This document shows positions 201 to 31,187 of a stretch of DNA of 32,000 nucleotides, one piece after another; the first letter of the stretch is position 1; each line of letters opens with the position of its first letter. Location: positions 2,250,001 to 2,282,000 of the forward strand of contig NZ_AP012549.1 in the NCBI RefSeq assembly GCF_000829235.1, in the 5' to 3' direction. The DNA comes from a cyanobacterium endosymbiont of Epithemia turgida isolate EtSB Lake Yunoko. GTDB taxonomy: Bacteria; Cyanobacteriota; Cyanobacteriia; Cyanobacteriales; Microcystaceae. The position numbers were made by a program, and so were the translations under genes. Under the pieces are notes generated by a model, which had not been told where the DNA came from, made no database searches, and saw only the letters and a list, made by a program, of their open reading frames with translations.

Positions 201-247
201 AATAATGTTAGCTACTGAAATAATTTTGTCCAGTAGCTAACATTATT
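201..247. repeat. Perfect hairpin, 17-bp arms (201-217 / 231-247), 13-nt loop
   Basis: AATAATGTTAGCTACTG ... CAGTAGCTAACATTATT read directly. The sequence occurs only here in the window. Confidence 0.9.
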
Positions 248-359
248 TGGCAAGATTAAATTACAATTCCCATAAATCAGCGCAATGATAACTTACTTAA
301 TAAAATATTTACGATAATATCTAATATTTTTTAAAAATTTTAACAACTAGTAAAATTAA

Positions 360-740
360 TTTTTGTGCATCATAGTAATGGAATATTCGCTCAAACAAGT
401 GGAGAATATTCTGAGGCGTTAGATAATTGTCATGGAGCTTCCAATTTAGAAACAGCTTTTAATGATTATGGCTACCTTTTCTGCAAAATTAGCATTATTT
501 ATGCTATAAATGGAAAGTGAACTAAAGCTCTATAATACTATAAAAAAATCTGTTAATCTGACTTTATCTATATCCTCAGCTTTGAATAATATTGCTATTA
601 TCTACTATTATCAATGAAAAAAAATAAAGAAGGATAAAACTTTATTTTATAAAGCGGCTGAATATCGTAAATAAGTGATCTATTTAGCTTCGAATAATCA
701 CACTGAAGCTTTAAATTGGTTTAAAATATCATAACGTTCA
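360..740 (+). pseudogene. Possible degraded TPR-repeat protein remnant
   Basis: One frame reads GEYSEALDNCHGASNLETAFNDYGYLF...INGK*TKAL*YYKKIC*SDFIYILSFE*YCYYLLLSMKKNKEG*NFIL. Its periodicity resembles TPR units (G-Y-EAL / KAL-YY-K), but it is interrupted by many stops. The call rests on pattern resemblance only. Confidence 0.3.
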
Positions 741-797
741 TTTCTGAACTTTGTGATATTTTACTTTTTGAGTATTCCCTATTTATGGAAAAAATAA

Positions 798-1094
798 ATG
801 ATTGATCGCCAACAAGTGCAAAAAATTGCTCATTTAGCAAGATTAGATATAACTCCCACAGAGGAAGAAGAATTTGCCCCTCAATTGAACCGTATTTTGG
901 AATATTTTGATCAGTTAAGTAAACTTGATACCGAAAATGTTCCTCCCACTACTAGGGCAATCGAATTAAGTAACATTACCCGCAGTGATAGTTCAACTGT
1001 TTGCAGTGACCGTGAATCCCTTTTAAAACAAGCTCCGGAACAAGAAGGAGAGTTCTTCCGAGTCCCTCAAATTTTGAAAAGTGACGAAGAATAA
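798..1094 (+). CDS. gatC: Asp/Glu-tRNA(Asn/Gln) amidotransferase subunit C
   Basis: 98-aa ORF with an ATG start. [26 protein letters not shown]...[12 protein letters not shown] is the canonical GatC pattern and length. Confidence 0.9.
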
Positions 1095-1140
1095 TTCTTA
1101 TAGAACTTTAAATTTTTAAATTACATGTTATGCTGATAGT

Positions 1141-1237
1141 TAGCTCGGACCCATGCGATTGCAACGCCCAAATCTTGTCAGGGCCGGAAGGTAGCAGCAA
1201 CACGGGATGCTTGCAATAGGCGTGGACTCCGAGCCCC
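1141..1237 (+). ncRNA. ffs: Signal recognition particle RNA (small/4.5S type)
   Basis: Carries the universal helix-8 motif GTCAGGGCCGGAAGGTAGCAGC (E. coli 4.5S: GUCAGGUCCGGAAGGAAGCAGC), preceded by GCAACGC. A closing stem pairs GCTCGGA (1143-1149) with TCCGAGC (1228-1234), and CCATGC pairs with GCGTGG. It forms a GC-rich island in an AT-rich spacer. Confidence 0.85.
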
Positions 1238-2073
1238 TGCTGCGTATGCGGTAACATATTTATTGTCTTCATCAGTAGCAAATTAGTGTCATGAAAATGA
1301 CTTAATTATAGTTGTGGAATATTGCTGTTGTTCAAGCATTAGTAAAAAATTAGCTTCATTTAATAAAATAAAATGTCTTAATATTTGCTCCGCCTCTTCG
1401 CAATAAAGTTAACAACGAGAGTCGTCAAATATTCTAATGTTAATTAGACTCCCCTTTGGGATCTTTTGGAAGTTCTTGGATATTTGATCTAGTCTATTGC
1501 GATGTCTATCTCAGAAAAACTATTACTTAACTTCAGCATAAGTCCTAGTTAAATCGCAATTTTGACTAGATGATTTTATCTAATATCCTTGCTTTTTCTT
1601 TTATATTTAATCTTCTTAATGTTAGGAAATGATATTACTACTATTGTGCTTACTTATGGAAAATTTTTAGGTTATAAGTTAACTTTATGTAGTTCTTAGT
1701 ATATTAGTTATGCTAGCTAAATTTTTAGGCAATTTATTATTCAGTAATTTCCTTTTTTAAATTACTGATTAATTCTAAGTTTACTTAAGATTACTTATTT
1801 AAGTTGTATAAGTTTATCTGAATAAAAATTATTTTTATAATCAGCGTATTTTGAGCTATTAAATAATTATTTAGATAGCTCAACTGTATTTAACCAGAAA
1901 CTAAACAGATTAATGATACTCTTAAATTAACTAGATTAGTGATACCTTTAGAAGGAGAGTATATTTGATGTGAAAATATAACCTAGTTTCCCTTTAGTTG
2001 AGTAATCATTCCTTCAACTGACAGTTTTTTCTCAGAAGTGATCATCTCTTTGATAAGATCTACGATCGACATT

Positions 2074-2082
2074 TGATATAAT
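2074..2082 (+). promoter_or_regulatory. Extended -10 motif TGATATAAT upstream of the ABC-2 operon
   Basis: Perfect TGnTATAAT ending 18 nt before the ATG at 2100. There is no good -35, and the implied leader is very short. This is motif evidence only. Confidence 0.3.
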
Positions 2083-2099
2083 TTTTTTATTTATTAACT

Positions 2100-3071
2100 A
2101 TGATTGAAGTTGAACGTCTGAGTAAAATTTATGGTTCCACAGCCGCCATCAAAGATGTGAACTTCTCTGTGAAAACAGGAGAAATACTTGGTTTTTTGGG
2201 TCCAAATGGTGCAGGAAAAACTACTACCATGAGGATTTTATCAGGATATATTCCCGCTACCAGTGGAACCGCTAAAATTAGTGGCTATGATGTCCATGAA
2301 CAGCCAATGGAAGTGAGACGGCGTATTGGCTATCTTCCTGAAAACCCTCCTTTATACCCTGATCTAACAGTGGAAGGTTTTTTAATGTTTGTGGCAAGAA
2401 TTAAAGGAATAGCAGTCGGAGACTGCCTTTCGCGAGTTAAATGGTCAACGGAACGCTGTCAACTCGAAGATAAACGTAAAGTACTTATTCGTAAACTTTC
2501 TAAAGGCTATAAACAAAGGGTAGGAATCGCTCAAGCGATTATTCACAGCCCTCCAGCTATTATTTTAGACGAGCCTACTGTCGGACTTGATCCAAAACAA
2601 ATTATTGAAGTTCGCCATCTAATCAAAAGTTTAGCCGGAGAACATACTATTATTCTGTCTACTCATATTCTACCTGAAGTTAGTATGACTTGTGACCGCG
2701 TAGCCATTATTAATAAAGGAAAAATAGTTGCCATTGATACCCCAAATAATTTAATGTCTCAATTAACCAAAAGTGGCGGATATGAACTAGAAGTGTCAGG
2801 AGATATTTATAGCATAAAATCTCTATTGGAAGAAATTCAAGGTATTTCTAATATTCTTATTAAAGACAAAGAAAACGCAAAAAATTGTCAATTAAATCAC
2901 TATTTAGTTCATTTAACAGCTGATTTAAATATAGAACCAGGACGAGATATTGCAGCCTTAATTATTAATCGAGGGTTAGCCTTATACGAAATGCGTCGTA
3001 CTCGTCCTACATTAGAGGATGTGTTCTTAAACTTGCTTACCGAAGAATCAGAAGTAGTAAATAACCAATAG
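2100..3071 (+). CDS. ABC-2 type transporter ATP-binding protein (GldA-like)
   Basis: 323 aa. Walker A GPNGAGKTT, signature LSKGYKQR, Walker B IILDEPTVGLD. First gene of a same-strand cluster with a 4-nt gap to the permease. Confidence 0.9.
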   Translation: MIEVERLSKIYGSTAAIKDVNFSVKTGEILGFLGPNGAGKTTTMRILSGYIPATSGTAKISGYDVHEQPMEVRRRIGYLPENPPLYPDLTVEGFLMFVARIKGIAVGDCLSRVKWSTERCQLEDKRKVLIRKLSKGYKQRVGIAQAIIHSPPAIILDEPTVGLDPKQIIEVRHLIKSLAGEHTIILSTHILPEVSMTCDRVAIINKGKIVAIDTPNNLMSQLTKSGGYELEVSGDIYSIKSLLEEIQGISNILIKDKENAKNCQLNHYLVHLTADLNIEPGRDIAALIINRGLALYEMRRTRPTLEDVFLNLLTEESEVVNNQ

Positions 3072-3075
3072 ATAT

Positions 3076-3861: not shown

Positions 3862-3907
3862 AATTTGCTGTAATCTATATATTTTCAATCAAATAAAACC
3901 GAAAAAA

Positions 3908-5821: not shown

Positions 5822-5875
5822 AAGATGGATAAAATATTTAACTCTAAATTAGAATCTAAATAGTTTAGAAAACTT

Positions 5876-6478: not shown

Positions 6479-7116
6479 TCAATCTAAATTTAGACCTTAA
6501 GAAACTTAGAAGTTCACTTTCATGATGGACTAAAATAACTTTTTTTTAAAAAAAGAAAAAAACAGATAACGAGTGATTTTAGCTTAATTTAATTCAAAGT
6601 AAAATATAAATTATTTCTTTAGAAAACAGGCGATGTATTTTTAGTTTGAAATTAACTTTTTTATTGAGTAATTAAATATGGATGAAATTTTATATTTGCT
6701 TGATTATTTTTCTGAGTTTAACTTTTAAAAAGTTAACTTATTGACTCAAATCCTATTTAACAAAAATTGAATTTTACTATAAATTAATATCAACTACAAA
6801 ATTAATTAGATAATTTATCTACTATGTTATAAAAAAATATTGAGTCCATACTACGAAAAAAAGATGGTTCAATTAGTCCTCTTAATTCTCTCAAAATATT
6901 CATATTGGCAACTTAAACCGATATAAGCAATTATATAAAAAATAAAAATCTTATCCTGAAATTTGTTTGGCACAATTAGACGAACAAAAATTACATTTGT
7001 TCACAAAGTAGAATCGAATCCTTTACTGGCAATCTCTCTTTGTAAGATGGTTTGTTGGAGGTGAACTTAACCTTTCCTACAATTTCTTGATCGCCATTTA
7101 ACCACCTGGCGACACC

Positions 7117-7170
7117 ACAACACCATGCTAGCTTGTACCCCAATGGGGGTACAAGCTAGCATGGTGTTGT
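7117..7170. repeat. Perfect hairpin, 24-bp arms (7117-7140 / 7147-7170), 6-nt loop, inside the acs pseudogene
   Basis: ACAACACCATGCTAGCTTGTACCC caatgg GGGTACAAGCTAGCATGGTGTTGT. About 50% GC, with a unique sequence. Confidence 0.95.
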
Positions 7171-7700
7171 ATTCGAGGGATTTAGTACCGAAGTGTTAAG
7201 AAATCACCTGAAAGATATTCAAGTAAAAATAGTTGTTGCAACTTACGACAGATTTTGCAAAGATTGAGTAGTTTCTATCAAATCTCAATTTGATTTAGCC
7301 CTGGAACAGGGGACAAATTAAATTGAGAAAATAATCGTTGTTGAACACACAAAAAAACCGTCAATATGGACAATAAAAGGGATTATTGATGGTATGGTTT
7401 TTAAAAAGATATTTCTAGAGACTATCCTGCTGAAGTGATTGATAGTGAAAATAGTCTAATTTATCCTCTACACCAGTGGTAGTCCTAAAAAACCTAAGAG
7501 AGTTGTGCATATCACTACAGAAAGAGTATAGTCTTTACACTCACATAACTACAAAATGGATCTTTTATTTAAAGAATATGGATGTCCATTAGTGTACTGC
7601 GGATGTTGATTAGATCGTTGGGCATAGTTATGTTGTCTATAGTCGCTATTTAATGGCATGGCGCTACCAATCTAATATATGAATGGTTTCCCCGCACTTC

Positions 7701-7744
7701 TAACCCAGGTTGTTTCTACTCTATCCTAGAAACAACCTGGGTTA
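7701..7744. repeat. Perfect hairpin, 18-bp arms (7701-7718 / 7727-7744), 8-nt loop, inside the acs pseudogene
   Basis: TAACCCAGGTTGTTTCTA ctctatcc TAGAAACAACCTGGGTTA. The left arm encodes the Acs motif NPGCF. Confidence 0.95.
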
Positions 7745-9325
7745 ATATATTTTATACTACCTCAACTTCTTCTCCCACTTTAATAAAAACACGAGGAGCG
7801 GTTCTCAACTCACATAATCTGTCTTTCTTACACTTATTAGGAACCTTTGACTATACCATTCATTAACCCCGAGGCTTGGATGTGATCTCAGCGAGTCATT
7901 GGAAGTGCATAAGGTCCCATTTTTGATACATGGTGACGAACGGAAATAAAAATCGTAATGATTACGGTCTTACCCGGAGCTATATCCATCAAACCTAGAT
8001 CAGCAACTCTTCGTTATTGCAGCGGATATAGTAGATAGAGCAAGTGATACTGTTTATAATAACCTTGAAGTTTTAAGAAGACTTATTGGGGTCTTATTCC
8101 ATTTCTTGAGTAGACAGGAAGTGTGTTTATTTTACCGAAGATGATGCGCGTCAAGATAAAGATGGCTATTTTGAGATTATGGAACGAGTTGATGATGTCC
8201 TGAATATCTCAGCCCAGGTACACCGCTTAGGGTTAATGCAGTTAGAATCAGCGTTTGAGTCTAATAGTAAGCTGGCTAAAGCTTTGGTGGTGGGAGTTCC
8301 CCATGGTTTTAAATAAAGGGGAAAACATCTATACTTTTATCACCTTTGAAGATAACCGTAGTGCAAGTGATCAGTTAGCTAAAAAATTTAAATAACACAT
8401 CGTCGCAGATATATTAGTCTATATCTTTAGGTAAAGGTAATGCGTAAATCAATTAATACACTTATAAGAAATAGTATTATGTAGGGTATTCAAATAAAGT
8501 ACATTTAAATAAAATTGTTTTTATAAATAGAAAATACTATCTATTCTTAGTAGAGCTAATTTTAAACTATTGAATAAAGTTATTGGCAGTCATTTTGAAT
8601 AAAAAGATCAGGTTAATATTCCAGTATTGACTTTTAAATACAAGTAATTATAATATAGTAACACGAGTAAGATATGAATTTTATTTTTAAAAAAATAATA
8701 AAACTTTAAAATAATCATCGTTAAACAAAATATACTAATATGTCTACAAAAAATTGAGTCGTATAAAAAATATCAAATAAATATTAAATAATAACATTAA
8801 GAGTATAGTAAAAAGTGAATAAACAAGAAGTAAAAATAATGTTAAAGTATCTAAGCCAAAAAATAAGTATATAAAAATCTTAGCAATTGAAACGGTTAAC
8901 AATTTTATTAATCGTTTTTTTAAAACTTAGAGAGTAGACGTAGAAATTATAGAAACAAAAAATTTTTAATAAAAAATAAAATAGTTAAAAACTCAGAAAA
9001 ATCTATTCTGACTAAGATTAAAGAAGTTAATATAAGTTTTGATAAACTCTATAATAATGTTGTCGAGCAATTAATGCTATAAACTGAAGTAATAACAAAT
9101 AAATTTTATTTAATGAAAAAAGTTTAAGAGTGAAGTTTAAAAAATATTTAAATAAAGAACAAAAAGCTAAAAGTGCTGCTTACAATCTTGCCATAATTAC
9201 AATATTCTATTTTTATAGTAATAAAATTTTTGTCACGATAGAATACAATACGAATAAAAAAATTAGAAGTTATTAGCTATTAATTTTAGGCTATAAAAGT
9301 AAATCTTATTCTAATAAGTTATTAA

Positions 9326-9365
9326 AGAATATTAAAAATTAAGTAAATAATTTTTAATATTCTTA
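9326..9365. repeat. Perfect hairpin, 16-bp arms, 8-nt loop
   Basis: AAGAATATTAAAAATT aagtaaat AATTTTTAATATTCTT. It lies next to the A/T-skew switch of the ORF-free tract. Confidence 0.85.
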
Positions 9366-12935: not shown

Positions 12936-12999
12936 TCGAATTATAGCTTTGAGATTTTTCAAAAAAGTATACTGTCTAATATTTGACGATTTACTTAAA

Positions 13000-15912: not shown

Positions 15913-15969
15913 ATAATAGACAATATAATTGCTCTTGAAATTTTCAAGAGCAATTATATTGTCTATTAT
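15913..15969. repeat. Perfect palindrome, 28-bp arms (15913-15940 / 15942-15969)
   Basis: ATAATAGACAATATAATTGCTCTTGAAA t TTTCAAGAGCAATTATATTGTCTATTAT. It generates the two mirror-image spurious ORFs 15759..15953(-) and 15850..16038(+). Confidence 0.95.
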
Positions 15970-16200
15970 TTTTTATCTTTTGATAGTAAAAATGTGATTA
16001 ATATGCCAAAGCAGAGGATTATAGAGTCTCTAGAATAACTAAAAACCTGTGTATTTTTTTTAAAAAAAATATAAATAAATAAACTACAAACAAGCTTAAC
16101 TATTACAATTAGCACAATATTATTAATTGGAATTAAATGTAAGATAGTGAAAATAAAGGTATTACAATGTACAGGAAAAATTTATAGATAAGCTAGAATT

Positions 16201-16237
16201 AGTTGATTATCTTTTTTTAAAAAAAAGATAATCAACT
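16201..16237. repeat. Perfect palindrome, 18-bp arms, 1-nt spacer
   Basis: AGTTGATTATCTTTTTTT a AAAAAAAGATAATCAACT. Confidence 0.9.
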
Positions 16238-16299
16238 AAAATTTATTTTTATAAATTTAAATTATCCAACTAAAATGTAACTATTGACTACCACTAAAA

Positions 16300-16329
16300 C
16301 ATTGATAAAAAATGTATTTTTTATCAATG
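16300..16329. repeat. Perfect hairpin, 14-bp arms, 2-nt spacer
   Basis: CATTGATAAAAAAT gt ATTTTTTATCAATG. Confidence 0.85.
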
Positions 16330-16786
16330 TTAACCATTTTATCTTGCTTTACTGTAACCAAAGAATGTGTTTCACATCTGCCATAGATTTAATTTTTTAG
16401 TCAACTCTATATTATTAGTTATTCTATCAAAAAATAGAATCCTAGAGTAAAGTACAAAGTTAAAGCTTTTTACTTTGTACAAGATCACTAACTCTGGCAA
16501 ACACTATATTTGATCATGAAACTTTAGGGGAAGAACTTGATGAATTAAAGGACTATACACTTTAATTTTTATGGTACTTATTATTTCCTAGAGGGTATCA
16601 GTCATAATTTTTACTTTTCTTCACAATTTTTCTCAAAAAACACTCAACTTTTCTGAAGAATCAAGTACATGCCAATTAATTTTTTTAATTGGGACAAACA
16701 AAAATCAGGGTTAACCCTATAAGAGCAAGGATGACATCCTAACCACATCAAAAAATTAGTTTTGGGATCAGATAATCGCAACTATT

Positions 16787-16828
16787 ATAAAAGTATCGTT
16801 TGATAACTTTGTCAAACGATACTTTTAT
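16787..16828. repeat. Perfect hairpin, 17-bp arms, 8-nt loop
   Basis: ATAAAAGTATCGTTTGA taactttg TCAAACGATACTTTTAT. Confidence 0.9.
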
Positions 16829-17128
16829 GGCAATTAATAAAGATAAGTTAATTGCGGTTAAATTAACATATCTTTATTGATTGCCAACTCAAAGAGTTGT
16901 ATTCAAAATTATAAAAAATCGTGAAATCTGTCTAAAAATATTAAAATTTTTAGAAATTTTAAGTATTAAAAACCCTTTTAAAAATGAAATTGTTCTATTT
17001 TATGTTTTATTTAAAACTGTAGTTTACGTACATCCTAGAACAATTCAAGAGTGTGTTGCGTTATGCTAATACACCCTTGAATATCGATATTGTTATGTTA
17101 ACTTCTTCGAACAGACAATTAACTTTAT

Positions 17129-20787: not shown

Positions 20788-21394
20788 AGTGTCTCAACAA
20801 TAAAAATCAATAATTTCTCAAGTTCTCATTGTCTCGAATTTTTAAATTTACCCCAACTACAACAGGACTAAAAATTACGTATTGACAAGATCAACTTAAA
20901 TATACAACCTATATTATAAAAATATAAAGTATTTATTAAGAATAATAGGCAGAAAACTGGTAGTAAGTGTTGTTAAACTCTTTATGTTTGCAACGTGAGT
21001 TTGACGAAGATTAATAGAGAGAAACGGAAGCAAAGATTTAAATCATATTGATTTACACACAATCTCGATGAATTATTAGCTTTTTTAAACTAGACTAATT
21101 GCCTGTACTTAATTTACCTAAAAAATCTTCTCTCAATTTGCGCGTCAAAAGTAAACTGGTCTTGCATCCGGATATTTCGGGAAAACTATTTTAATTTTGA
21201 TTGCTGATAGTTATTGTTTCAGATAATAATCAGCTCTGTTATATCTTAACAGTGGATTTTTCCTTTATCCCCAGAGGCCTTCTTGTACAAGCTTGAAATA
21301 TGGTGAAAGTACCTTGGTTTTGACAATAAATTAGCCAACAATTAATAGATAAATAAACTTAAATCACTATATAAAGCTATTATTTCCGATTAAA

Positions 21395-21468
21395 TCGGAG
21401 CGGCGGGATTTGAACCCACGACCCCCACTACCCCAAAGTGGTGCGCTACCAAGCTGCGCTACGCCCCG
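21395..21468 (-). tRNA. tRNA-Pro (anticodon GGG)
   Basis: The reverse complement folds as a 74-nt cloverleaf: CGGGGCG TA GCGC AGCTTGGTA GCGC A CCACT TTGGGGT AGTGG GGGTC GTGGG TTCAAAT CCCGC CGCTCCG A. CCA is not encoded. Confidence 0.9.
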
Positions 21469-21655
21469 CTATCTGCAGGCTATAATTGTAGACCATATTC
21501 CAATTACAATGCAACCTTTTACTAAAAAAAATTTTTTGTTCGCTGTGATCTTCCTTAAAGTTTTAGATCAAGATGCCTGCGATCACTTCCGATTTATCTT
21601 GTGACATAAGACGTAGAAGCAACCTCAGGCATCTATCAAAAAATAGTCAGACTTT

Positions 21656-22138
21656 CTAAAATAATCCTAGGGTTAAAGATTTATCAATGGGGAAAGTTGC
21701 CCCTGCACCCAACCACAGAGTAACAAAAATTGCAAAGAGAAACATAGTAGTTGCTACAGGACGACGGAAAGGATTCTGAAATTTGTTGACATTTTCAATA
21801 AAAGGAATCAACATTAAACCTAAAGGAATAGCCACTTGACAAGCAATTCCTAATAATTTGTTAGGAAGAATCCGTAAAATTTGGAAAGCAGGATAAAGAT
21901 ACCACTCCGGGAGAATTTCTAAAGGAGTGGCAAAAGGATCAGCCGGTTCACCGACCATAGTGGGGTCAAGAACCGCTAATGCCACTAATAATCCTATAGT
22001 CCCAAGAATCACCACAGGAAAAATATAAAGTAAGTCATTAGGCCAAGCTGGTTCACCGTAATAGTTGTGACCCATGCCCTGGACTAGTTTTGCCCTAAAG
22101 TTAGGATCGTTAAAATCTGGCTTTTTTTCAGTTGCCAT
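21656..22138 (-). CDS. petD: Cytochrome b6-f complex subunit IV
   Basis: 160 aa. [20 protein letters not shown]...[11 protein letters not shown] is the canonical PetD sequence. It lies downstream of petB. Confidence 0.95.
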
Positions 22139-22270
22139 TGGTATAGATTTCTCCTTATCAAAACTGAGAATCAGCAGGATGTGTTTCTAACATTAGTGAC
22201 CAGTCTTTAATCACTAAAGATTTATAGTTAATTAATTAAATTAACTGTTTACTGGCCACCCTTAAGTACT

Positions 22271-22939
22271 TTACAAAGGACCAGAAATCCCTTGTTTGCG
22301 GATCATTAAAAAATGCAGCAGCATGAAGACTGCGATTAGCCAGGGAAAAACAAAAGTATGTAAGCTGTAAAAACGCGTTAAGGTGGTCTGTCCTACACTT
22401 TGACCACCCCGAAGGAGTTCAACTAATTGATCTCCCACCACCGGAATAGCTGCAGGAACACCTGAAACTATTTTAACCGCCCAATAACCAACCTGATCCC
22501 AAGGAAGAGAGTAACCTGTTACACCGAAAGAAACGGTGATAACAGCTAAAACAACTCCAGTAATCCAAGTTAACTCACGAGGCTTTTTAAAACCACCAGT
22601 CAAGTAAACACGGAAAACATGAAGGATCATCATCAATACCATCATACTGGCAGACCAGCGATGGATTGAACGTATCAGCCAACCGAAGTTAACCTGATAC
22701 ATAATATATTTAACTGAAGAAAAGGCTTCAACAACCGTTGGTTTGTAATAAAACGTCATGGCAAATCCAGTAGCAAACTGGATTAAGAAACAAACTAAAG
22801 TAATTCCACCCAAACAGTAAAAAATGTTTACATGGGGAGGAACGTATTTAGTTGTGATGTCGTCAGAAATTGCCTGAATCTCAAGACGATCATCAAACCA
22901 CTTATAGATGGGAGAATCTGTAACTTGTTTGGAGAACAT
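22271..22939 (-). CDS. petB: Cytochrome b6
   Basis: 222 aa. [48 protein letters not shown]... is the canonical cyanobacterial PetB sequence and length. Confidence 0.95.
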
Positions 22940-22986
22940 TGAAGCTATAATTCGCTATCGTAATGAATGATCAAGGGTTGATTGGC

Positions 22987-23024
22987 TTGACTTCTTCAGT
23001 GAGATACCCCATAGAAGAAGTCAA
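22987..23024. repeat. Hairpin in the probable petB 5-prime leader, 11-bp arms, 16-nt loop
   Basis: TTGACTTCTTC ... GAAGAAGTCAA, located 48-85 nt upstream of the petB ATG. Confidence 0.6.
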
Positions 23025-23109
23025 TGTTAGCGACATGGAGAAAACAAAACACCTTATAAGAAAATCTAACACACTACTTTCCATTATGTTCACCGCGATC
23101 ATTATCTAA

Positions 23110-23144
23110 AAAGATAGATTTACATAGCACGTAAATCTATCTTT
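23110..23144. repeat. Perfect hairpin, 14-bp arms, 7-nt loop
   Basis: AAAGATAGATTTAC atagcac GTAAATCTATCTTT. Confidence 0.85.
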
Positions 23145-24138
23145 AACTAGTGTTTTAATGATTTTTTAAAAGCATTTACTATCCATTTCGGCTTATGCAA
23201 TAACAAAGTGGAGGTAGATTTTAAATTTTTCATCATATTATTTTGAACCAAATGAGATAATTTCCACTGGAAGAATATATACTCCGTCTAAATCTCTCAA
23301 TTTCCGTATTAGTAATGATGAGTCAATTTTTCCGAGTTAGATAAGGCTCAATCTAGCTATTTATTTTTGATTATATGGGAGTCGATAATCGTATAAATCA
23401 ACATCACCATAGTAATTAATCCCACTAGAGCAATCAACCCTAAAATATGTGTGATTTGAACCTACCCTCAAACTTGCTAAAATAAAAATCACTAAATTAT
23501 GCTATTTTACGGAGTAAATAGGGTAAAATGCAACAATTGAATAAGGTAACTATCAGTAAACACTCTCCTTCTTTCAACAAAACTATCAAGATTTCTTTCT
23601 CTAACGATGACTGCTCATCAGTGCTAAAAGCCGTTAGAATAATCATGATAAGAACAACTCAAATATCCTGAACGTTCAATATCCCTAAGGCAGGTTTTCC
23701 ATGTATGGAACTAATTTACCGTTTATTTATAAAATAATTAAACAATAAATGATAGGCTTTGAAAAAGTTAAGGTAATAGCTATATAAAATTTGTCCCATC
23801 TTTGCTATTGGTTCCACCTCACAAATTTCGTAAAAGCTAAATTTCAAACCAATAACAAACAATAATGAAGTAATTCTTAATTTAGCCAAGAATTCGATTT
23901 TTGCCTAAATAATAAACGCCATAATTCAAGGTTGACGTAAACAAAAAGCTAAAGCTGACCATAAATAAAATGTTTTGATTTTTTATTGTATATTCCTAAA
24001 TATTAATCTACTCTCTATTTTAAAATAGTCGCTGAAATAATAGAGAAAACCGGTAAGAAAAAATAATCCAATTGGGTGAGGTTTTTTGTTATCATACTTT
24101 TTATTTTGGTAGGAAGGATAAAACTTTAAATAAAAGGT

Positions 24139-24597
24139 ATGAATTTGTTTATGAGACGGAATATTTTTTTTACGCTGTCCATCGCTGTTGCCCTCATCTT
24201 CAAGAGTCCGGTATTAGCTGGAAATCCAGCTAATATCCAACGGTTGTTAACAACTAATGAATGTATGGGGTGTGACCTTTCCAATGAAGACTTAAAATTT
24301 GCTCATTTAATCGGAGCAGATTTAAGGGATGCTAATCTGTCAGGGTCAACCCTAATCGAAGCTAACCTAGAAGGAGCGGATATGACGGGGGCTAACCTCG
24401 AAGGATCTAACTTAACTGGGGCAATAGTTACTAATGCCAGTTTTAATGATTCGAATTTAGATAATGTGAACTTCACCCGAGCAATGATTTATGATGCTGA
24501 TGTGACAGATGCGTCCATGAATAACCTAAATTTAACTAACGCTAAAATCTTTGACACAGGTATTGGAATTGGTGGACAAGACCCCGCCTTTGATTAG
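24139..24597 (+). CDS. Secreted pentapeptide-repeat protein
   Basis: 152 aa. Signal peptide (FFTLSIAVALIFKSPVLAG) followed by tandem A(D/N)LxX pentapeptides: DLRDANLSGSTLIEANLEGADMTGANLEGSNLTGA... Confidence 0.8.
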   Translation: MNLFMRRNIFFTLSIAVALIFKSPVLAGNPANIQRLLTTNECMGCDLSNEDLKFAHLIGADLRDANLSGSTLIEANLEGADMTGANLEGSNLTGAIVTNASFNDSNLDNVNFTRAMIYDADVTDASMNNLNLTNAKIFDTGIGIGGQDPAFD

Positions 24598-24707
24598 AAA
24601 CGATAAGCTAGAGAAATTCAGCTGTAATAGTTGTTTATATCAAAGAAAAAACCAGTTTAAAATGTATACATTAGTATTCTGTGTTAGTGTTTTGTTTGTC
24701 TCGTATT

Positions 24708-24744
24708 ATCTTTTTAATCTAAACTACGTTTAGATTAAAAAGAT
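24708..24744. repeat. Perfect hairpin, 17-bp arms, 3-nt loop
   Basis: ATCTTTTTAATCTAAAC tac GTTTAGATTAAAAAGAT. It lies 110 nt downstream of the pentapeptide gene and has no trailing T-run. Confidence 0.9.
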
Positions 24745-25492
24745 GTTGTAAGTCCCAGGGTCGATATTGTGTGTGGACCCAAGTTGAGTCGAGCTAGCCT
24801 AATTGCCCCATAAAAAAATCAATTGCCCTATGCTAAATTTAAAGAACGTTGTCAAAAAACATTAAAACTAACAAATACAGTTTAATGCTGAAGAGATCGT
24901 TTACATTTACATTAAGGTCGCATTTAAGAATAGATAGACGTAGCAACTTCCATACTTAAAAGTCAATTATTAAGATTGTAACTAATACTGTCTCTATTGA
25001 CTCATAACTCTGAATTCAGAGCCTATTGTTTATCCATTAAACCGTTGTCCATTCCATATAGGCTGGACTAGATAAGTCATGAATATTGGTAAATGCGTTC
25101 CAAAATTGTCAGCTTTTCTTGTTTTTATGGTTCATGATCAACTATAAATTCCTTATTGTTGAATTCTGTTTATCGGAGTTTTCGTGTTATTAATATCTGA
25201 ATCGTTTTTATTCTTGCTCCGCCAACAACAAAATTAGGTTTGCGTTGGTCCCGCCGCAAAATTTTCATTATAGCTAGCCCAAACATAATACCGACTAGTG
25301 CAACTATAATTACTCCAAAAAAAAGAAATAATTACTCGAATATTAGTTCTTATTTCTTCTAGAATGAATTGTTAGTTGAGTTTATAGATTAGTTACCTAA
25401 CTTCATCTCAAAATTTCTTTGGATTTGATTCAATTAAACAAAGACAAAAGGGTAAATCAAGTTAATTAATAGGGTTTCTCTTTTTCATCAAT

Positions 25493-25578
25493 TTATTAAT
25501 TCTGAGGAGTTGCTTACTCCTTTGGTGGTTGAGGTTGGAGAGAGAAGGTTAGTTAACTACCATTAGCAGAATTAATAA
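25493..25578. other. Compact three-helix structured element (candidate small RNA or terminator complex)
   Basis: An outer 12-bp stem, TTATTAATTCTG (25493-25504) with CAGAATTAATAA (25567-25578), encloses two hairpins. The first is AGGAGT-tgctt-ACTCCT (25505-25521). The second is TGGTGGTT (25523-25530) with AACTACCA (25555-25562). The interior is richer in GC than the flanks. Confidence 0.35.
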
Positions 25579-25605
25579 TTAGAGGGTGGATAATTCTGTG
25601 CTTTC

Positions 25606-25797
25606 CTAAAAGATATACTTTTTAAAGTTTTTAACCAAAATATAAAAGATTAGAACTAACACTAAACCCAACACTGTTGATAAGGTTGCTCTACCAAAAG
25701 CTACATAGTATACAGGTTTAGCAATATTTTTTCCTAAATAACGGGCTTTTATGAAGCATATACCAATCCAAGTAATCAAAGCTATCTGGGTAAACAT
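25606..25797 (-). CDS. Hypothetical small membrane protein
   Basis: 63-aa ORF with an ATG start and two hydrophobic segments. No family recognised. It could be a gene fragment. Confidence 0.25.
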   Translation of the reverse strand: MFTQIALITWIGICFIKARYLGKNIAKPVYYVAFGRATLSTVLGLVLVLIFYILVKNFKKYIF

Positions 25798-25849
25798 AAT
25801 TTTTATTTAGTACTGGACAGATATCATTTCATAGTTTGAAAGAAGCCTT

Positions 25850-26053
25850 TTAAGCACACGCTACTCGCGACCAAATCATTCCCAACGCGCCTAAAAGAGG
25901 CAAAAGTAAGGTGAATAGGGTAATAGTGGAGTCAAAATAACTTTCATACTTAGTGACTAACATCAAGAATAGCGTCGTAACAGTAAAGTAAAAAACAATG
26001 GTAGCCACTCCTCCAGAGGTTTTATCCTTGACGTCAGTAATTTGTCCAGTCAT
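25850..26053 (-). CDS. Hypothetical small membrane protein
   Basis: 67 aa from the ATG at 26053 (the track ORF starts at a TTG, 26059), with two hydrophobic segments. No family recognised. Its start codon lies within a hairpin arm. Confidence 0.25.
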   Translation of the reverse strand: MTGQITDVKDKTSGGVATIVFYFTVTTLFLMLVTKYESYFDSTITLFTLLLPLLGALGMIWSRVACA

Positions 26054-26087
26054 AGCCAAAACAAAACTGTAGGGTTTTGGCTATGAC
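26049..26087. repeat. Perfect hairpin, 14-bp arms, 11-nt loop, overlapping an ORF start
   Basis: GTCATAGCCAAAAC aaaactgtagg GTTTTGGCTATGAC. Confidence 0.9.
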
Positions 26088-27097
26088 TGCTTCCATCGAT
26101 CGATTGAATAACCTGAGCAGAATTATACCCAAGAACAAAATTTAAAATTAATTTTATGACAGGATAAGTCTTGTATTGGTTAATAATTGGGGATAGGTAG
26201 TTAAAGTTGGGATGACCGTTCTATTTATTGAGTTGTTTTCTCATCACATGATTACAAAATGTCCAATGTCTTAAGGGTTTGTACGTGCATCGACTTAAGC
26301 TTTAGCCTCAACCCAATAGAGATAATCTTTATATACAAAATGATTGACAAAATTTGGCTAAATAAATATTTGAATAGTTCGTAAAATTTATTCAATAGCT
26401 ATATTCTGCTTCTTGATTTTTTTTCGATTAATCTATATGGTGATTAAGTGACTATCAATGGTAAAAATAGTGCAAATAACTCAAGTTTTTGGTTGTTTTT
26501 TATAGAAAAAAAGCGTTAAACTTCGAAGAAGCAACTTGGTTCATTACAGAAGGTAAGTTTGACCTCCCTAAAAGACTTTTTTCTGCAACAATACTTGAGC
26601 GGTATTTAGGTCTATCTTTTTCGTATTACTCGGTGTAAGAATCAATTAATCTCACTTGTTCAGTTCTGTTGATTTTCTGTCTAGGCACGATTATAAAATT
26701 ATTCTCTATGGTTTTGGCATTTGTACTAATCTAATTTAGAGAGAATTTATATCTACTTTTTCTTCGGAATTTCATTGTTTTTTATATACAAAATTTGTTT
26801 TTAACTCTTTTCCTTTTTAATCTCAAAAAGAGCTATGATAAATAATCTGATCTATTTTAATTTCACAATTTTAAAAATATCGGGTTATGAATATATTTGT
26901 CCTGCTGTTGTTATTGCTAAATTAGTGGGTTTTTATAAAGCTGCTTAATAGTTCATCAGAAATATTGGGCTCAGATCATGTCTGAGAATACCATTGCAAG
27001 CACTTACATTATTTGGATTGGGATAAAGTCTTGACCAATTAATAAATTACGTATTACTATCATTGGCTTAACTTTTTTACAAGACAAACAATTATAA

Positions 27098-27170
27098 CGG
27101 GTGTGACAGGACTCGAACCTGTAACCTACGACTTAGAAGGTCGGTGCTCTATCCATTGAGCTACACACCC
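27098..27170 (-). tRNA. tRNA-Arg (anticodon UCU)
   Basis: The reverse complement folds as a 73-nt cloverleaf: GGGTGTG TA GCTC AATGGATA GAGC A CCGAC CTTCTAA GTCGT AGGTT ACAGG TTCGAGT CCTGT CACACCC G. There is one C-U mismatch at the top of the anticodon stem. Confidence 0.9.
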
Positions 27171-27298
27171 ATGAAGTCCATTATGACCGCTTCATAATTG
27201 TATACCCTCTCTTACTGATAACGTCAACTCTAAAAGTCATTAATTTTAAAACTCTGAGTTTTATGATACAGTCTCCCACAAAATCCTTTAGTTTAGGA

Positions 27299-27976
27299 TT
27301 AAAAGTCAAATTCATTCAGCCTTTTCTGTAACATTTGAGGAAATTTGGCATAATATTTCTGATTGAGAGGAGATGGATGGGGTAAAGGAAGTAAAGTTAC
27401 TTGTCGTCGGTGTTGCATACCCAAAGTATCAGTCGCGCGGAGAGTTACAGGTAATTTATTTTCATAGCGATCGCTCCGCTGGAAAAATTCATTAACTTCC
27501 CCTTTATCTCCATAGGGAATAAACCACTTAAACGCCTCGGTTCCTAGGGTAATAATCTGATTTCCTTGCCAGTGAATAACTAATAATGTTTCTATAAAGG
27601 GACGGAAACGATTTTTAACTTCAGTCATATAAGCTTTATTGCCAGGGGGTTTATAGGGGACAGTATTAGTAAGGAGAACTCGAGCACAGACGCTTTGCAA
27701 CTCCTGTTGAGTTTTCGCTTGTTGATGATGCATCGCCGAGTAAAACCCTCTACGAACTAAGGTGCCTGCGGCACCAATTAAAGGTTCTCCCATGTGGACT
27801 TCATCTCGTCCAAGATCTCGTCCCAAAAAGCAGATCTTACTTTTGAGGTTTCCTGCATATAAAATAGGTTGAGTAGGATCTTTATTAGCCGCCTTATAAA
27901 CTGTTGTATCAATGGGAAACAGTTTTCGTTTAGCTTCTAGATGAATTTGAACGATCAAGGTTTCAATATCTGGCAT
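27299..27976 (-). CDS. Uracil-DNA glycosylase superfamily protein (family 4/5-like)
   Basis: 225 aa. Motif-A region FLGRDLGRDEVHMGEPLIGAAGTLV (compare family-4 fvGEaPGxxEdxxGxPFvGxAGxlL) and motif B LPHPSPLN. It contains the only perfect HIP1 site (GCGATCGC, 27467-27474) in the window. Confidence 0.75.
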   Translation of the reverse strand: MPDIETLIVQIHLEAKRKLFPIDTTVYKAANKDPTQPILYAGNLKSKICFLGRDLGRDEVHMGEPLIGAAGTLVRRGFYSAMHHQQAKTQQELQSVCARVLLTNTVPYKPPGNKAYMTEVKNRFRPFIETLLVIHWQGNQIITLGTEAFKWFIPYGDKGEVNEFFQRSDRYENKLPVTLRATDTLGMQHRRQVTLLPLPHPSPLNQKYYAKFPQMLQKRLNEFDF

Positions 27977-28519
27977 TAATTCACTTAATTTGTGGTGACA
28001 GCAATCAGTACCATAGCATTATTTGTGACCAGTAAACTCTGCTACTAAGAGTAGATAAATCTAAATAAATGTTAAAGAAGCAACTTATTTTGAGTTTTTA
28101 CATTTAAGTGACTACAGTATTTGAATATAACTATAATTAACATATCTTGGAACTATTGATATTTATCAAATAAATATCTGGTTTTACTGTCTTAACTAAG
28201 TTGTATTTATATTTAAATATTTTTTCAAAAATTTAATACTATTTTCTCTATATTCCTTAAGTCTAAATAAAGAAATATAAAAAAATAGAGATATAACTCT
28301 TTTTATTTCCATTAATTTAGTTGATCTATAACTAAACTATTTAGAACCACTGAATTATTATCACTAATATGTTAGTTTTTATAAAAAGTTTTTTGGTGTT
28401 TTAACCATAAAAAATATAAGTTACTGTCGTATCTATGATTTCTGTAAATTATATTATACCTATCTTATTTAAGATTTAATAACGGGACATGGTGAATGCT
28501 TTTGAATTTAAAATATCAT

Positions 28520-28580
28520 TCAGTATTCTCAGTTGAGTATTTTATACTGTCAGTATAAAATACTCAACTGAGAATACTGA
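28520..28580. repeat. Perfect palindrome, 30-bp arms, 1-nt spacer
   Basis: TCAGTATTCTCAGTTGAGTATTTTATACTG t CAGTATAAAATACTCAACTGAGAATACTGA. Confidence 0.95.
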
Positions 28581-28612
28581 GTATAGCACAATTAAGTTTA
28601 AATAGAAAACTT

Positions 28613-28646
28613 GCTAAATCTATTCTATTTATAGAATAGATTTAGC
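28613..28646. repeat. Perfect hairpin, 15-bp arms, 4-nt loop
   Basis: GCTAAATCTATTCTA ttta TAGAATAGATTTAGC. Confidence 0.9.
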
Positions 28647-28753
28647 TTTTGATAAGCTTCTAATCTATGATTAGATTCTGTTATGTGTTTAACTTTTATA
28701 TAATTAGGTTCAGAATATCTAAATTACGCCCAATATTTTTACAGATAATTTAA

Positions 28754-29431
28754 CTAGGAAATGGACTGAATTTGTCCTCCTTTTAATGTCAGAATATACT
28801 TGGCGAACTGCTTAACAAATTTCTTTTGATGGCTCACCATAATTATAGTAATTTGTTCTGTTTCATTTGAATTAATTAAAGTTTCTATTAATTGCTGAGC
28901 ACGATCACTATCTAAAGCTGAAGTGGGCTCATCTAACAATAAAAGTTTAGGTTTCATCATTAACCCCCGCATAATACTCACTAATTGTCGCTGTCCTAAA
29001 GATAATTGCAATTCATTTCGAGTTAACCAATCATCAGGGATAAAAAGTTGTGATTGCCATGTATAAATTGCCTGTTCAATCTCTAGTTTAGATAACTGTT
29101 GCAATAATAAAGGATAAGCAAGGGTTTCTTCTACAGTCATCCCTAATAATTTTGGCTCTTGGGGAACTAGAACAATTTGTTGACGTAGTTTAACAACAGA
29201 AAGATTGCAGAGAGGTTGAGAATCCCATTCAATTAACCCTGATGTTGGGTCTTGTAAACGGTTAATTAGCCGTAATAGAGTAGTTTTTCCAGCACCAGAA
29301 GGACCGACAATTGCTAAGCGATCACTCTGGTTCACCTGAAAAGAAATATTAGTTAATAACTTATTTTCTTCTCTAAAATCAGTAAAACTAACCTCGGATA
29401 ATTTTAATAATGGAGTTAATTCAGAGTTCAT
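28754..29431 (-). CDS. ABC transporter ATP-binding protein with no adjacent permease
   Basis: 225 aa. Walker A GPSGAGKTT, signature LSLGQRQ, Walker B LLLLDEPTSALD, H-loop VSHQ. Confidence 0.85.
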   Translation of the reverse strand: MNSELTPLLKLSEVSFTDFREENKLLTNISFQVNQSDRLAIVGPSGAGKTTLLRLINRLQDPTSGLIEWDSQPLCNLSVVKLRQQIVLVPQEPKLLGMTVEETLAYPLLLQQLSKLEIEQAIYTWQSQLFIPDDWLTRNELQLSLGQRQLVSIMRGLMMKPKLLLLDEPTSALDSDRAQQLIETLINSNETEQITIIMVSHQKKFVKQFAKYILTLKGGQIQSIS

Positions 29432-29471
29432 AACTTATTAAGTGTAGAAGTTATTTAATAGAGATAGTTAT

Positions 29472-30130
29472 TTATTTTTTTTTTCTATCTTGAAACATTT
29501 CAGAAGCACTTTCCATACAAGCTAATATTGCTGGGAAACTTGCCATAATATCTCGTTGTTCTCCTCCTAAATATAATCGAACAAAACTCCCAATAGCCGA
29601 AACCTGAAGAATATTAATTGAAGCGGTTTCTTCTGCTTCTTCTGCCTCATTAGCTACTAACGTCGCATAATCAGTTGGTTGAACTTCCAAAACATAAAGA
29701 GTTTGTCTGGCTAATAACATTTGTACCCGTCGGTTACGATTGACTAATTGTGCTTGATATAAATCAATGTTACGAATAATTCAACTAGAAACCACCTTGA
29801 ATTTTCAACAATTGTGTCTATTAACGCCTAAAGTATCTAAAATTGCTCCTTATACAGCTTTTACTTCTTCTTGATTAGTGGAATAAATTTCGATAAGTCC
29901 ATAAAGATGTTCGATAAATTACACTTTAGGACTAACTACAATAGATTTTAAAGCGAGATCCTTAACGCGGTTACTTTCAATTCCTGGAGAAATTTAAATC
30001 CACAGTGAAGTATCCCCAGGTAAAGCTAAAAAACCTAACTTTACCATACCAATCAATGTAGACGGCATATTGAAGTTGTAATCGGTCTAAATAAACATAG
30101 CTCTGTAATTCAACTCTCAAAGTGAGATTA
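29472..30130 (-). pseudogene. ccmP: Carboxysome shell protein CcmP (tandem-BMC) pseudogene. Only the C-terminal 82 codons remain open.
   Basis: A single minus-strand frame reads [141 protein letters not shown]...[24 protein letters not shown]. This is collinear with CcmP as I recall it (LPGDASVWIEISPGIEINR...ERLYGLMEVH...[41 protein letters not shown]...[24 protein letters not shown]). At least 6 in-frame stops and no obvious frameshift. Confidence 0.85.
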
Positions 30131-30730
30131 TCCTATGTTTTTCATTGATCTTTATAAAGACACCTTAAACAAATTCCCCTAAGACTAGTGAAATAAGGAG
30201 ATTACAGATTTTACATAATAAATTAGTTTGTTTTTCTAGGTTAAAGTAGTTGTAATTCTCTAAGTTAAATCATTATTTAATATTAATTATAGGCAAAATA
30301 CAAAATTTTCTTTATTTTTTATGTTAATCAACCAAGTATAACTCAAAAAAAAATACAAAATGTAGCGATCATATCAAAATAATGTTGCTATTTCAATTAT
30401 TGAAATAGGTTATTAATTTTATTAATATATCAGCATCAATATAAATATTTAAAAATATTAGTCACGTCTTTATTGAGATATATAGTGGTCTGTATAATGT
30501 CTAAGTTTATCAGATAACTTTATTAAATAATATATATTTTTTATAAAAATAAAGATGGTAGTTAATTATTAATAATTAATTTTTTTTATAAAAAAGACAT
30601 CATACTTCAGTGTCAGGTTGCTTAGAATACAACTAATAATTGATAAAATAATTCGTCTGAGTCTACCAACTAGAGTATTTTTTCAATTCTAATTTTTTTT
30701 TAATAAACTATAAAAATAGTATTTTATTAA

Positions 30731-30772
30731 TTTTTTATGATGATTAAATTTAAATTTAATCATCATAAAAAA
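30731..30772. repeat. Perfect palindrome, 20-bp arms, 2-nt spacer
   Basis: TTTTTTATGATGATTAAATT ta AATTTAATCATCATAAAAAA. Confidence 0.9.
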
Positions 30773-31145
30773 TAGCAATATTACCAATATTTTTCTCATA
30801 ACTACTATGTCAATTTTATCCCAATAACAAATAAAAATAGCATTTAAAGTGTAAACAGAAACCCCGTAATAAACTTAATTTTTTTGTTTTAATTAAAGAA
30901 TTATAGTTAACATAATAGCCATTAATATTATTTTACTTGTCTAAAACTTGGTCCTTATACCCCATCTATTTTATTAGAAAGTATTCAATTTAAATAAAAA
31001 ATTAATAATTGTAGTAATACTCATTTATCAAAAATAAATACCAATAGAAAAAACTGCTCACTATTATTATTTTAAGGGAATAAATTTCAGAATAGTCTTC
31101 AACTTAAAATAAAACTAAATTAAAGGAACTAAAACGGAAAATATT

Positions 31146-31187
31146 GCTCAAACTGCATTGAAACAAAAATCACTATGCAGTTTGAGC
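31146..31187. repeat. Perfect hairpin, 13-bp arms, 16-nt loop
   Basis: GCTCAAACTGCAT ... ATGCAGTTTGAGC. Confidence 0.85.

Follow-up and report, generated by a model that had tools for sequence, protein, structure and literature searches.

Perfect hairpins in non-coding and pseudogene DNA of the Epithemia turgida spheroid-body endosymbiont as probable footprints of short-range template switching

The spheroid body (SB), or diazoplast, of Epithemia turgida is a nitrogen-fixing cyanobacterial endosymbiont (EtSB), and a 32-kb stretch of its genome (the window) was analysed here for perfect inverted repeats with short spacers, referred to as hairpins. The window has a G+C content of 31.6% (68.4% A+T) and carries gatC, the signal recognition particle (SRP) RNA, an ABC/GldG-type transporter cluster, a copper P-type ATPase, an ABC exporter and fur, together with genes for a peroxiredoxin, an NFACT protein, petB/petD, a pentapeptide-repeat protein, a uracil-DNA glycosylase and an ABC ATPase. 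Between these genes lie long tracts without an intact open reading frame (ORF). ORFs of at least 100 aa make up 44% of the window, and the remaining ~56% is non-coding. The product of the ABC ATPase gene is 100% identical to a protein recorded for the endosymbiont of E. turgida. The nearest genomes are those of other spheroid-body endosymbionts of Epithemia and Rhopalodia diatoms, with which synteny is kept across nearly the whole window.

An exhaustive scan of the whole window for perfect inverted repeats (arms of at least 13 bp, spacers of at most 20 nt) returned exactly 15, with arms of 13-30 bp (Table 1). The initial annotation, made from the sequence, had counted the same number at the same sites, several of which truly start 1-2 nt earlier than it had placed them. 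It had also assigned arms of at least 16 bp to ten hairpins and of 13-15 bp to five. The longer class in fact holds 13 of the 15, with 16298, 26047 and 28613 (16 bp each) having been under-measured. The longest arms measure 30, 28, 25 and 22 bp and enclose spacers of 0-4 nt. The arms of 11 of the 15 have a G+C content of 6-30%, and a T-rich tail accompanies at most three to four, in keeping with the earlier remark that most lack the T-run of a terminator.

Table 1. Hairpins, related inverted repeats and other mapped features of the window. Hairpins are named by their first position.
Feature	Position	Arm	Spacer	Context
Hairpin 201	201..247	17	13	Upstream of gatC
Hairpin 7117	7117..7170	25	4	Inside acs pseudogene (AMLAC...HSVVF codons)
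Hairpin 7701	7701..7744	18	8	Inside acs pseudogene; left arm encodes N-P-G-C-F
Hairpin 9325	9325..9364	17	6	A+T-rich non-coding tract
Near-palindrome 15913	15913..15969	28	1	Rewritten right arm
Near-palindrome 16199	16199..16239	20	1	
Hairpin 16298	16298..16331	16	2	Junction of ~650-bp deletion
Hairpin 16787	16787..16828	17	8	Right arm: 5 nt gained plus substitutions
Near-perfect inverted repeat	16828..16886	26 nt, 92% complementary		Adjoins hairpin 16787
Hairpin 23110	23110..23144	14	7	171 nt upstream of petB; rewritten right arm
Hairpin 24708	24708..24744	17	3 (loop)	111 nt downstream of pentapeptide-repeat gene; conserved
Hairpin 26047	26047..26089	16	11	AcrB pseudogene remnant
Near-palindrome 28520	28520..28580	30	1	174 nt downstream of ABC ATPase gene
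Hairpin 28613	28613..28646	16	2	108 nt downstream of ABC ATPase gene; possible terminator
Palindrome 30730	30730..30773	22	0	Rewritten left arm
Hairpin 31146	31146..31187	13	16	
GC-richer hairpin downstream of fur	17060-17100			Orthologous to L003 7560-7600 and L024 8801-8840; ATTCAAGGGTGTATTAG...CTAATACACCCTTGAAT
ABC ATPase gene	28754-29431			
Bacterial small SRP RNA	1142-1238			Directly downstream of gatC; Rfam RF00169, 60 bits
tRNA-Pro(GGG)	21395-21468			
tRNA-Arg(TCT)	27097-27171			

Chance and technical artefact were considered as sources of the pattern. In 100 dinucleotide-preserving shuffles of the window within 500-bp blocks, the mean number of hairpins was 0.07 (maximum 1) for arms of at least 13 bp and 0.01 for arms of at least 16 bp, against the 15 observed. 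The hand estimate in the initial annotation had assumed an A+T content of about 80%, which is too high, but its expectation was right to an order of magnitude. Amplification chimeras are typically inverted, which would favour an artefact of multiple-displacement amplification, and the DNA of the Rhopalodia gibberula SB had been amplified with REPLI-g. However, the Logan contig L089, assembled from a separate run (SRR29904087), is 100% identical to window positions 21439-30759 (9321 bp) and reproduces exactly the five hairpins that it spans (23110, 24708, 26047, 28520 and 28613). Furthermore, imperfect or perfect versions of the hairpins occur at orthologous sites in independently sequenced genomes. 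The identical contig and the local shuffles together rule out artefact and A+T-rich composition, an origin to which we assign almost no probability. Contig L089 terminates at 30759, inside the palindrome 30730-30773, where a de Bruijn assembler is expected to break. The other independent Logan contig end (21421-21439) falls inside tRNA-Pro.

The hairpins are confined to DNA that does not code for intact proteins. None of the 15 lies inside an ORF of at least 100 aa (P = 0.56^15, ~2e-4), as the initial annotation had stated for intact coding sequences, and the corresponding count across spheroid-body loci is 0 of 35. The only small ORF that overlaps a hairpin (25850-26053, at hairpin 26047) encodes an AcrB-family fragment and is therefore a pseudogene remnant. 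Hairpins 7117 and 7701 are situated within a pseudogene of acetyl-CoA synthetase (acs), and the earlier statement that two hairpins are built from acs codons was confirmed by their translated flanks (...FLDRHL..., ...MLAC..., VVFEGFS... and FILYTSGS.KKPK), which match solved Acs structures across AMLACARIGA...VIFGGFS in the alignment. The acs pseudogene (window 6900-8700) has a large internal deletion between DRHL and AMLAC, as do its counterparts in the SBs of R. gibba and R. gibberula, so inactivation of the gene must predate the split of these endosymbiont lineages. No remnant of this acs stretch was detectable in EcSB. Elsewhere, in uoEpiScrs1, a perfect hairpin with 13-bp arms (L090 11095-11124) lies within an apparently intact ycjF (DUF697), the sole case in an intact coding sequence among 42 hairpins of spheroid-body loci.

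To reconstruct the origin of individual hairpins, each except 201 was aligned, with 200 bp on either side, to sister spheroid-body sequence from four to six genomes. The relatives comprised EcSB (L003), the SBs of R. gibba (L004), R. gibberula (L024/L088) and R. yunnanensis (L087), and the metagenomic sequences L082 and L085. The closest of them, L082, shares 90% nucleotide identity with the window over 7 kb. In the free-living SU2, SU3 and Crocosphaera, the ABC exporter gene was all that is common to the window and its flanks gave no match, so these genomes were unusable as outgroups for non-coding sites.

The perfect form proved to be specific to the EtSB lineage in eight hairpins (9325, 15913, 16199, 16787, 23110, 26047, 28520 and 30730). 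At 15913, 16787, 23110, 26047, 28520 and 30730, two to four relatives concur on a state that the window does not have, and the imperfect state is therefore ancestral and the window state derived. Hairpins 9325 and 16199, with 5-9 of 17 and 4-6 of 20 positions paired in relatives, respectively, also fit a lineage-specific derived change, on weaker alignments. At five sites (15913, 16787, 23110, 26047 and 30730), the relatives agree with the window in one arm, and a clustered multi-nucleotide change has turned the other arm into the exact reverse complement of the first. These clustered replacements are often accompanied by an insertion or deletion (indel) of 1-5 nt. The net length change is nevertheless small, ranging from 0 to +5 nt in most cases, 23110 included (+5 at 16787, +3 at 28613, +0 at 26047, -1 at 30730, and 57 versus 56 nt at 15913).

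Hairpin 26047 is the clearest case and presents as a textbook template-switch footprint. L082 has exactly the same left arm and 11-nt spacer, whereas five substitutions within 7 nt of the right arm occur in the window only, in flanks that are 90% identical; L082, L087 and L088 are concordant on the ancestral state. Six nucleotides downstream of this hairpin, at 26095-26098, the window has a 4-nt tandem duplication (ATCG to ATCGATCG) that is absent in all three relatives.

The other rewritten arms differ in how much pairing preceded them. At 15913, the left arm has 4-7 differences from EcSB and the R. gibba SB, and the right arm has 15-20. Merely 8-12 of 28 positions are paired in the relatives, which implies that a block of ~15-20 nt was overwritten, beyond mere correction. 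At 16787, a 5-nt gap and ACTTTCAT are common to three relatives, in which 7-10 of 17 positions are paired. The near-perfect repeat 16828-16886 shares position 16828 with this hairpin; its right arm is without a counterpart in the relatives, a 38-nt window-specific deletion lies alongside, and the repeat probably records an event of this type that was imperfect or slightly older. At 23110, GTCAAAAC-TCTTT is common to the R. gibba and R. gibberula SBs (8 of 14 positions paired), and the whole hairpin is deleted in EcSB. At 30730, the outer right arm (ATCATCA..AAAA) is recognisable in all four relatives, still differing from the window at 4-7 of 22 positions, and the left arm has seven differences from L082, against a flank divergence of 11%. 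At 28520, 9-15 of 30 positions are paired in relatives, and a 35-nt central deletion in L082 leaves arms of 10 bp. Some of these events thus read as de novo creation of a hairpin from near-random complementarity, and not solely as correction of a quasi-palindrome.

A minority of the hairpins has a longer history. Hairpin 28613 is perfect in both the window and L082; the Rhopalodia SBs are 3 nt short in the left arm and have two mismatches (12 of 16 positions paired). Four others (7117, 7701, 24708 and 31146) are older. The R. gibberula SB holds a decayed, imperfect version of 7117 (20 of 25 positions paired, with a 14-bp perfect core), and the left arm is deleted in the R. gibba SB. Here the differences between EtSB and R. 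gibberula in one arm are mirrored in the other (CCATGC/GCATGG versus CTATGT/ACATAG), within flanks that are ~20% diverged, which implies re-homogenisation. At 7701, the R. gibberula SB has 13 of 18 positions paired and a 4-nt deletion in the right arm, and the R. gibba SB has lost the hairpin by deletion. Hairpin 24708 is kept in three lineages (16 of 17 positions paired in the R. gibberula SB, 15 of 17 in the R. yunnanensis SB). Three of its pairs covary, with one adjacent double transversion (TC/GA to GA/TC) among these changes, and its loop reads TAC in the window and GTA in a relative, mutual reverse complements. The multi-base covariation and loop flip at 24708 and the symmetric arms at 7117 are patterns that have been ascribed to template switching (PMC8794818). 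In L082, hairpin 31146 differs by one compensated pair (C:G to A:T) and by one mismatch; its left arm was formed through a 17-nt deletion, judged against L085 and L088. Hairpin 16298 lies at a BLAST junction (16327-16333, matching L004 9091/8444) that marks an EtSB-specific deletion of ~650 bp, and five of six central positions of its right arm differ from the ancestral TTTTGCCGCCATGTT. Short-word BLAST is uninformative in such A+T-rich DNA, and the position of the deletion junction was all that it yielded for this site.

Small palindromic mobile elements are common in cyanobacterial intergenic DNA, and hairpin-forming repeats are known in organelle and Rickettsia genomes. The hairpins could accordingly be copies or remnants of REP, MITE or RPE-like elements. 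However, an all-against-all comparison found no arm sharing more than 9 nt with another, the matches of 7-9 nt being A+T-rich and attributable to chance, and a copy search found no further copy of any arm within the window. The initial annotation's statement that no two hairpins share sequence is thereby upheld. The orthologous sites, moreover, hold homologous sequence of similar length in which one arm is ancestral, including acs codons. The alignments reveal length-preserving replacements, and no discrete insertion with a target-site duplication was found at these sites. A mobile-element family is effectively refuted for the window by the arm comparison and copy search, and we regard such an origin as highly improbable.

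Functional selection offers another reading, in which the hairpins would be intrinsic terminators or, as befits an organelle-like genome, transcript-stabilising 3' stem-loops of the plastid kind. Position and conservation lend it some weight at a few sites: 24708 has been kept in three lineages with its covarying pairs, and 28613 and 28520 both follow the ABC ATPase gene, the former with a weak T-rich tail on the gene's strand. The GC-richer hairpin downstream of fur is perfect or nearly so in EcSB and in the R. gibba and R. gibberula SBs, with a compensated pair (C:G to A:T) in EcSB. It has decayed in EtSB itself, however, and is likely a real terminator that EtSB is losing. For most hairpins the evidence points the other way. 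They are confined to one lineage, several lie inside pseudogenes (7117 and 7701 in acs, 26047 in the AcrB remnant), and sister genomes carry different hairpins at the same site. The set as a whole does not resemble G+C-rich stems joined to a T-run just 3' of a gene: most are without a T-run, stems have only 6-30% G+C in 11 of 15 and are far longer than terminators need, and only 24708, 28520 and 28613 lie downstream of an intact gene. A terminator consensus scan flagged several hairpins solely because its tail rule is lenient in A+T-rich DNA. Across relatives, structure is kept for 24708 and the fur-downstream hairpin and partly for 28613 and 31146, but not for the others. Even at 24708, the adjacent double transversion cannot pass through G:U intermediates, and a copying mechanism fits it better (PMC8794818). 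A terminator role is backed by position and conservation for at most two to four hairpins. Selection on terminators or 3' stem-loops could cover at most a few (24708, 28613, perhaps 28520, 31146 and the fur-downstream hairpin), but not the lineage-specific ones in pseudogenes, whose location argues against plastid-type 3' RNA stabilisers for most of the set. As a general explanation, functional selection is unlikely.

We consider it probable that the hairpins are footprints of short-range template-switch (quasipalindrome-associated) mutation in neutrally evolving non-coding and pseudogene DNA of EtSB. The derived changes, their polarity, their lineage specificity, the avoidance of coding sequence and the absence of a repeat family are direct observations. 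On this evidence most hairpins appear to be recent and to have originated by template switching rather than through mobile elements or functional selection. During DNA synthesis, a nascent 3' end would come off and re-anneal to a nearby, partly complementary stretch on the opposite or nascent strand. From a few to ~20 nt would be copied before the return to the original template, and one arm would thereby be overwritten in place by the exact reverse complement of the other. The outcome would be new perfect stems, old stems extended or re-homogenised, multi-base 'compensatory' changes and flipped loops. Selection would purge such multi-nucleotide changes from coding DNA, so that the products would survive only in the ~56% of the window that is unconstrained. 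Later, hairpins would decay through point mutation or be lost by deletion, giving rapid lineage-specific turnover, and the few conserved ones downstream of genes may double as terminators or RNA 3' stem-loops. Copying at the replication fork, rather than repair synthesis or intramolecular conversion, would follow from published models. Among apes, template-switch events are enriched at poly(dA:dT) tracts (PMC7954356), which fits the A/T runs in several arms and the A+T-rich DNA of the window. The initial annotation had proposed template-switch or fold-back synthesis that converts quasi-palindromes to perfect ones, the products lasting only under relaxed selection. The sister-genome alignments support this proposal, with the qualification that some events look de novo and that an older, conserved minority exists.

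Several points weigh against this interpretation or narrow it. Selecting hairpins that are perfect in the window tilts the relatives towards an imperfect appearance, a bias countered for part of the set by the concordant outgroups and by an unbiased scan, and further by a reciprocal comparison (both described below). The alignments of 9325 and 16199 are uncertain, lying in A+T-rich DNA that is 25-50% diverged, and the ortholog comparison covers all hairpins but 201 and, at 16298, extends to the deletion junction only. Sequence alone cannot tell a template switch at replication from fold-back repair synthesis or from gene conversion between the arms within one molecule. Hairpins 24708 and 28613 and the one downstream of fur could have been retained through selection on RNA structure. 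The non-coding excess over free-living cyanobacteria is modest, ~4-fold (0.84 versus 0.19 per non-ORF kb) and ~8-fold for arms of at least 16 bp. Finally, the evidence comes from 32 kb of the EtSB genome only, and no genome-wide pattern is shown.

The unbiased scan took all 25 mutation clusters (at least four differing columns) in the 7-kb alignment of the window with L082 and applied a simple exact-match test with controls. An exact reverse-complement copy of neighbouring sequence explains 2 of the 25 clusters, and reverse-only or complement-only controls explain 0 of 25. The same comparison contains ~3-4 hairpin-forming events alongside 513 point mismatches. It also contains two small loop inversions, at 28086-28092 and 28167-28172 (TATTTTGAG in the window against CAAAATTAG in L082, and a CAA versus TTG loop within an inverted repeat with 9-bp arms, GATATTTAT/ATAAATATC).

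The process is reciprocal among lineages. Where a hairpin is perfect in the R. gibba SB, EcSB, the R. gibberula SB or L082, the window has an imperfect or different sequence or a deletion, and private hairpins were also found in R. gibba, EcSB, the L082 organism and uoEpiScrs1. At two orthologous sites different structures occupy the same place: window 9325-9364 corresponds to a hairpin with 15-bp arms in the R. gibba SB (L004 15936-15972), and window 16199-16239 to a different, 24-bp perfect palindrome in the same relative (L004 9166-9213). Such coincidence suggests that a weak inverted repeat in the ancestor gave rise to local hotspots. Deletions recur at these structures as well. Two of the five indels of at least 10 nt between the window and L082 fall exactly in long palindromes, which constitute ~2% of the sequence: L082 has lost the centre of 28520, and the window has lost one arm of a palindrome that L082 carries. 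The latter (L082 7652-7708, window 25212) is a perfect hairpin with 26-bp arms in L082, of which a 46-nt deletion with a CTTG direct repeat at its borders has left a single arm in the window; the R. gibberula SB has a quasi-palindrome at this site. Hairpins abutting lineage-specific deletions include 16298, 16787, 23110, 7117/7701, EcSB 15135 and L082 7652.

We then compared hairpin densities among genomes. Per non-ORF kb, the window has 0.84 perfect inverted repeats (15 in 17.9 kb), other spheroid-body loci have ~0.30 (20 in 66 kb, largely syntenic DNA), and 77 free-living cyanobacterial loci have 0.19. Since 56% of the window is non-coding, much of its raw hairpin density follows from this. 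Among repeats with arms of at least 9 bp, the arm-length spectrum of the window is bimodal, with 12 of 33 having arms of at least 16 bp, whereas that of the free-living loci declines monotonically (22 of 348). By locus, R. gibba has seven hairpins in 22 kb and uoEpiScrs1 has seven in 21 kb, one with 28-bp arms and a 1-nt spacer. Free-living relatives are near zero, with one in 21 kb in Rippkaea orientalis PCC 8801 and none in SU2 or Crocosphaera.

These densities bear on a variant of the template-switch reading in which the same process has, beyond relaxed selection, risen in rate in this lineage through a weakened or lost nuclease (SbcCD, RecJ, ExoVII or ExoI-like) acting as a mutator. The roughly threefold density of EtSB over its sisters and the bimodal arm lengths would be expected under such a rise. 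The number of events per point mismatch seen against L082 also looks high next to the roughly 4000 events reported across whole ape genomes (PMC7954356), a comparison in which detection thresholds differ. On the other hand, a 2026 preprint describes spheroid-body replication and repair genes as largely intact apart from dnaA. One 32-kb window is a small sample, and EtSB may be unexceptional given total densities of 0.32-0.33 per kb at the loci of R. gibba and uoEpiScrs1; free-living non-coding DNA is constrained and hence not a neutral baseline. A mutator is a rather unlikely addition. The searched literature on spheroid-body and related endosymbiont genomes does not mention sbcCD, recJ, xseA, recQ or mutS.

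Template switching as proposed here has close parallels in known systems. Quasipalindrome mutation (Ripley model; Dutra & Lovett 2006; Lavi et al. 2018, PMC5941160) involves the same conversion from imperfect to perfect, with one arm copied from the other, and the same clustered multi-nucleotide changes. In E. coli, non-coding perfect inverted repeats with arms of at least 13 have an observed/expected ratio of ~150, for which template-switch correction was proposed (PMC5941160). The EtSB arms differ in their far greater length (up to 30 bp, around spacers of 0-1 nt) and in arising, in several cases, from near-random complementarity. They also stand in endosymbiont DNA rich in pseudogenes, where turnover is fast and lineage-specific, in contrast to the conservation reported by Lavi et al. 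Four-point template switches (Loytynoja & Goldman 2017; Walker et al. 2021, PMC7954356; Monttinen & Loytynoja 2022, PMC8794818) share with EtSB the in-place reverse-complement replacement, the single-event de novo perfect stems, the multi-base compensatory changes, the loop inversions and the association with A/T tracts. Those studies dealt with the genomes of apes and with genes for rRNA or miRNA; the EtSB hairpins occur in neutral bacterial DNA at a far higher apparent density.

Plastid stem-loops resemble the present hairpins in their A+T-rich, organelle-like genome, their unique sequences, their location in spacers and the flip-flop of loops between relatives, as at 24708, 28086-28092 and 28167-28172. 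Hairpin-associated small inversions and stem-loops in plastid non-coding DNA are reportedly exemplified in work by Kelchner and Wendel from 1996. Plastid 3' inverted repeats, however, are mostly conserved functional RNA-processing signals, whereas the EtSB hairpins are mostly lineage-specific and found in pseudogenes. REP, MITE and Rickettsia palindromic elements likewise are short palindromes in bacterial intergenic DNA, reduced genomes included, but they form multi-copy families spread by transposition, whereas each EtSB hairpin is unique and derived from local ancestral sequence.

Hairpins and palindromes are not mentioned in the searched literature on spheroid-body and related endosymbiont genomes, which did not cover the original EtSB genome paper, and the observation in spheroid bodies appears to be undescribed there. 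Both the mechanism and a general surplus of perfect inverted repeats in the non-coding DNA of bacteria have been reported before (PMC5941160, PMC8794818), and the setting alone is new. The hairpins are thus a new instance of a known process, with no new element or mechanism.

This setting nonetheless provides a clean natural example of bacterial template-switch mutagenesis, with abundant neutral DNA and several closely related complete genomes, so that single events can be polarised and dated. The hairpins indicate that selection is not needed to produce long perfect stems, multi-base 'compensatory' changes or flipped loops, and they call for caution when covariation in the genomes of endosymbionts or organelles is taken as a sign of functional RNA structure or of terminators. 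Deletions are known to concentrate at long palindromes. More speculatively, spheroid-body genomes, and that of EtSB especially, may be subject to a heightened cycle in which deletion follows template switching, and the birth and collapse of palindromes would be a main engine of pseudogene erosion and DNA loss. Such a cycle would combine a high rate of hairpin writing, perhaps through a lost or host-limited nuclease that surveys hairpins or 3' ends, with long palindromes that then serve as deletion hotspots in an endosymbiont genome with few mobile elements. The palindrome-located indels (two of five), the hairpins abutting deletions and the ~3x density of EtSB relative to its sister genomes are hints in this direction, although we rate the idea as rather unlikely. 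Spheroid-body genomes are described as shrinking yet structurally stable despite a low coding density (2026 preprint). A link between hairpins and DNA loss in these genomes is plausible, and the hairpins may offer a handle on the route by which spheroid-body genomes lose their DNA.

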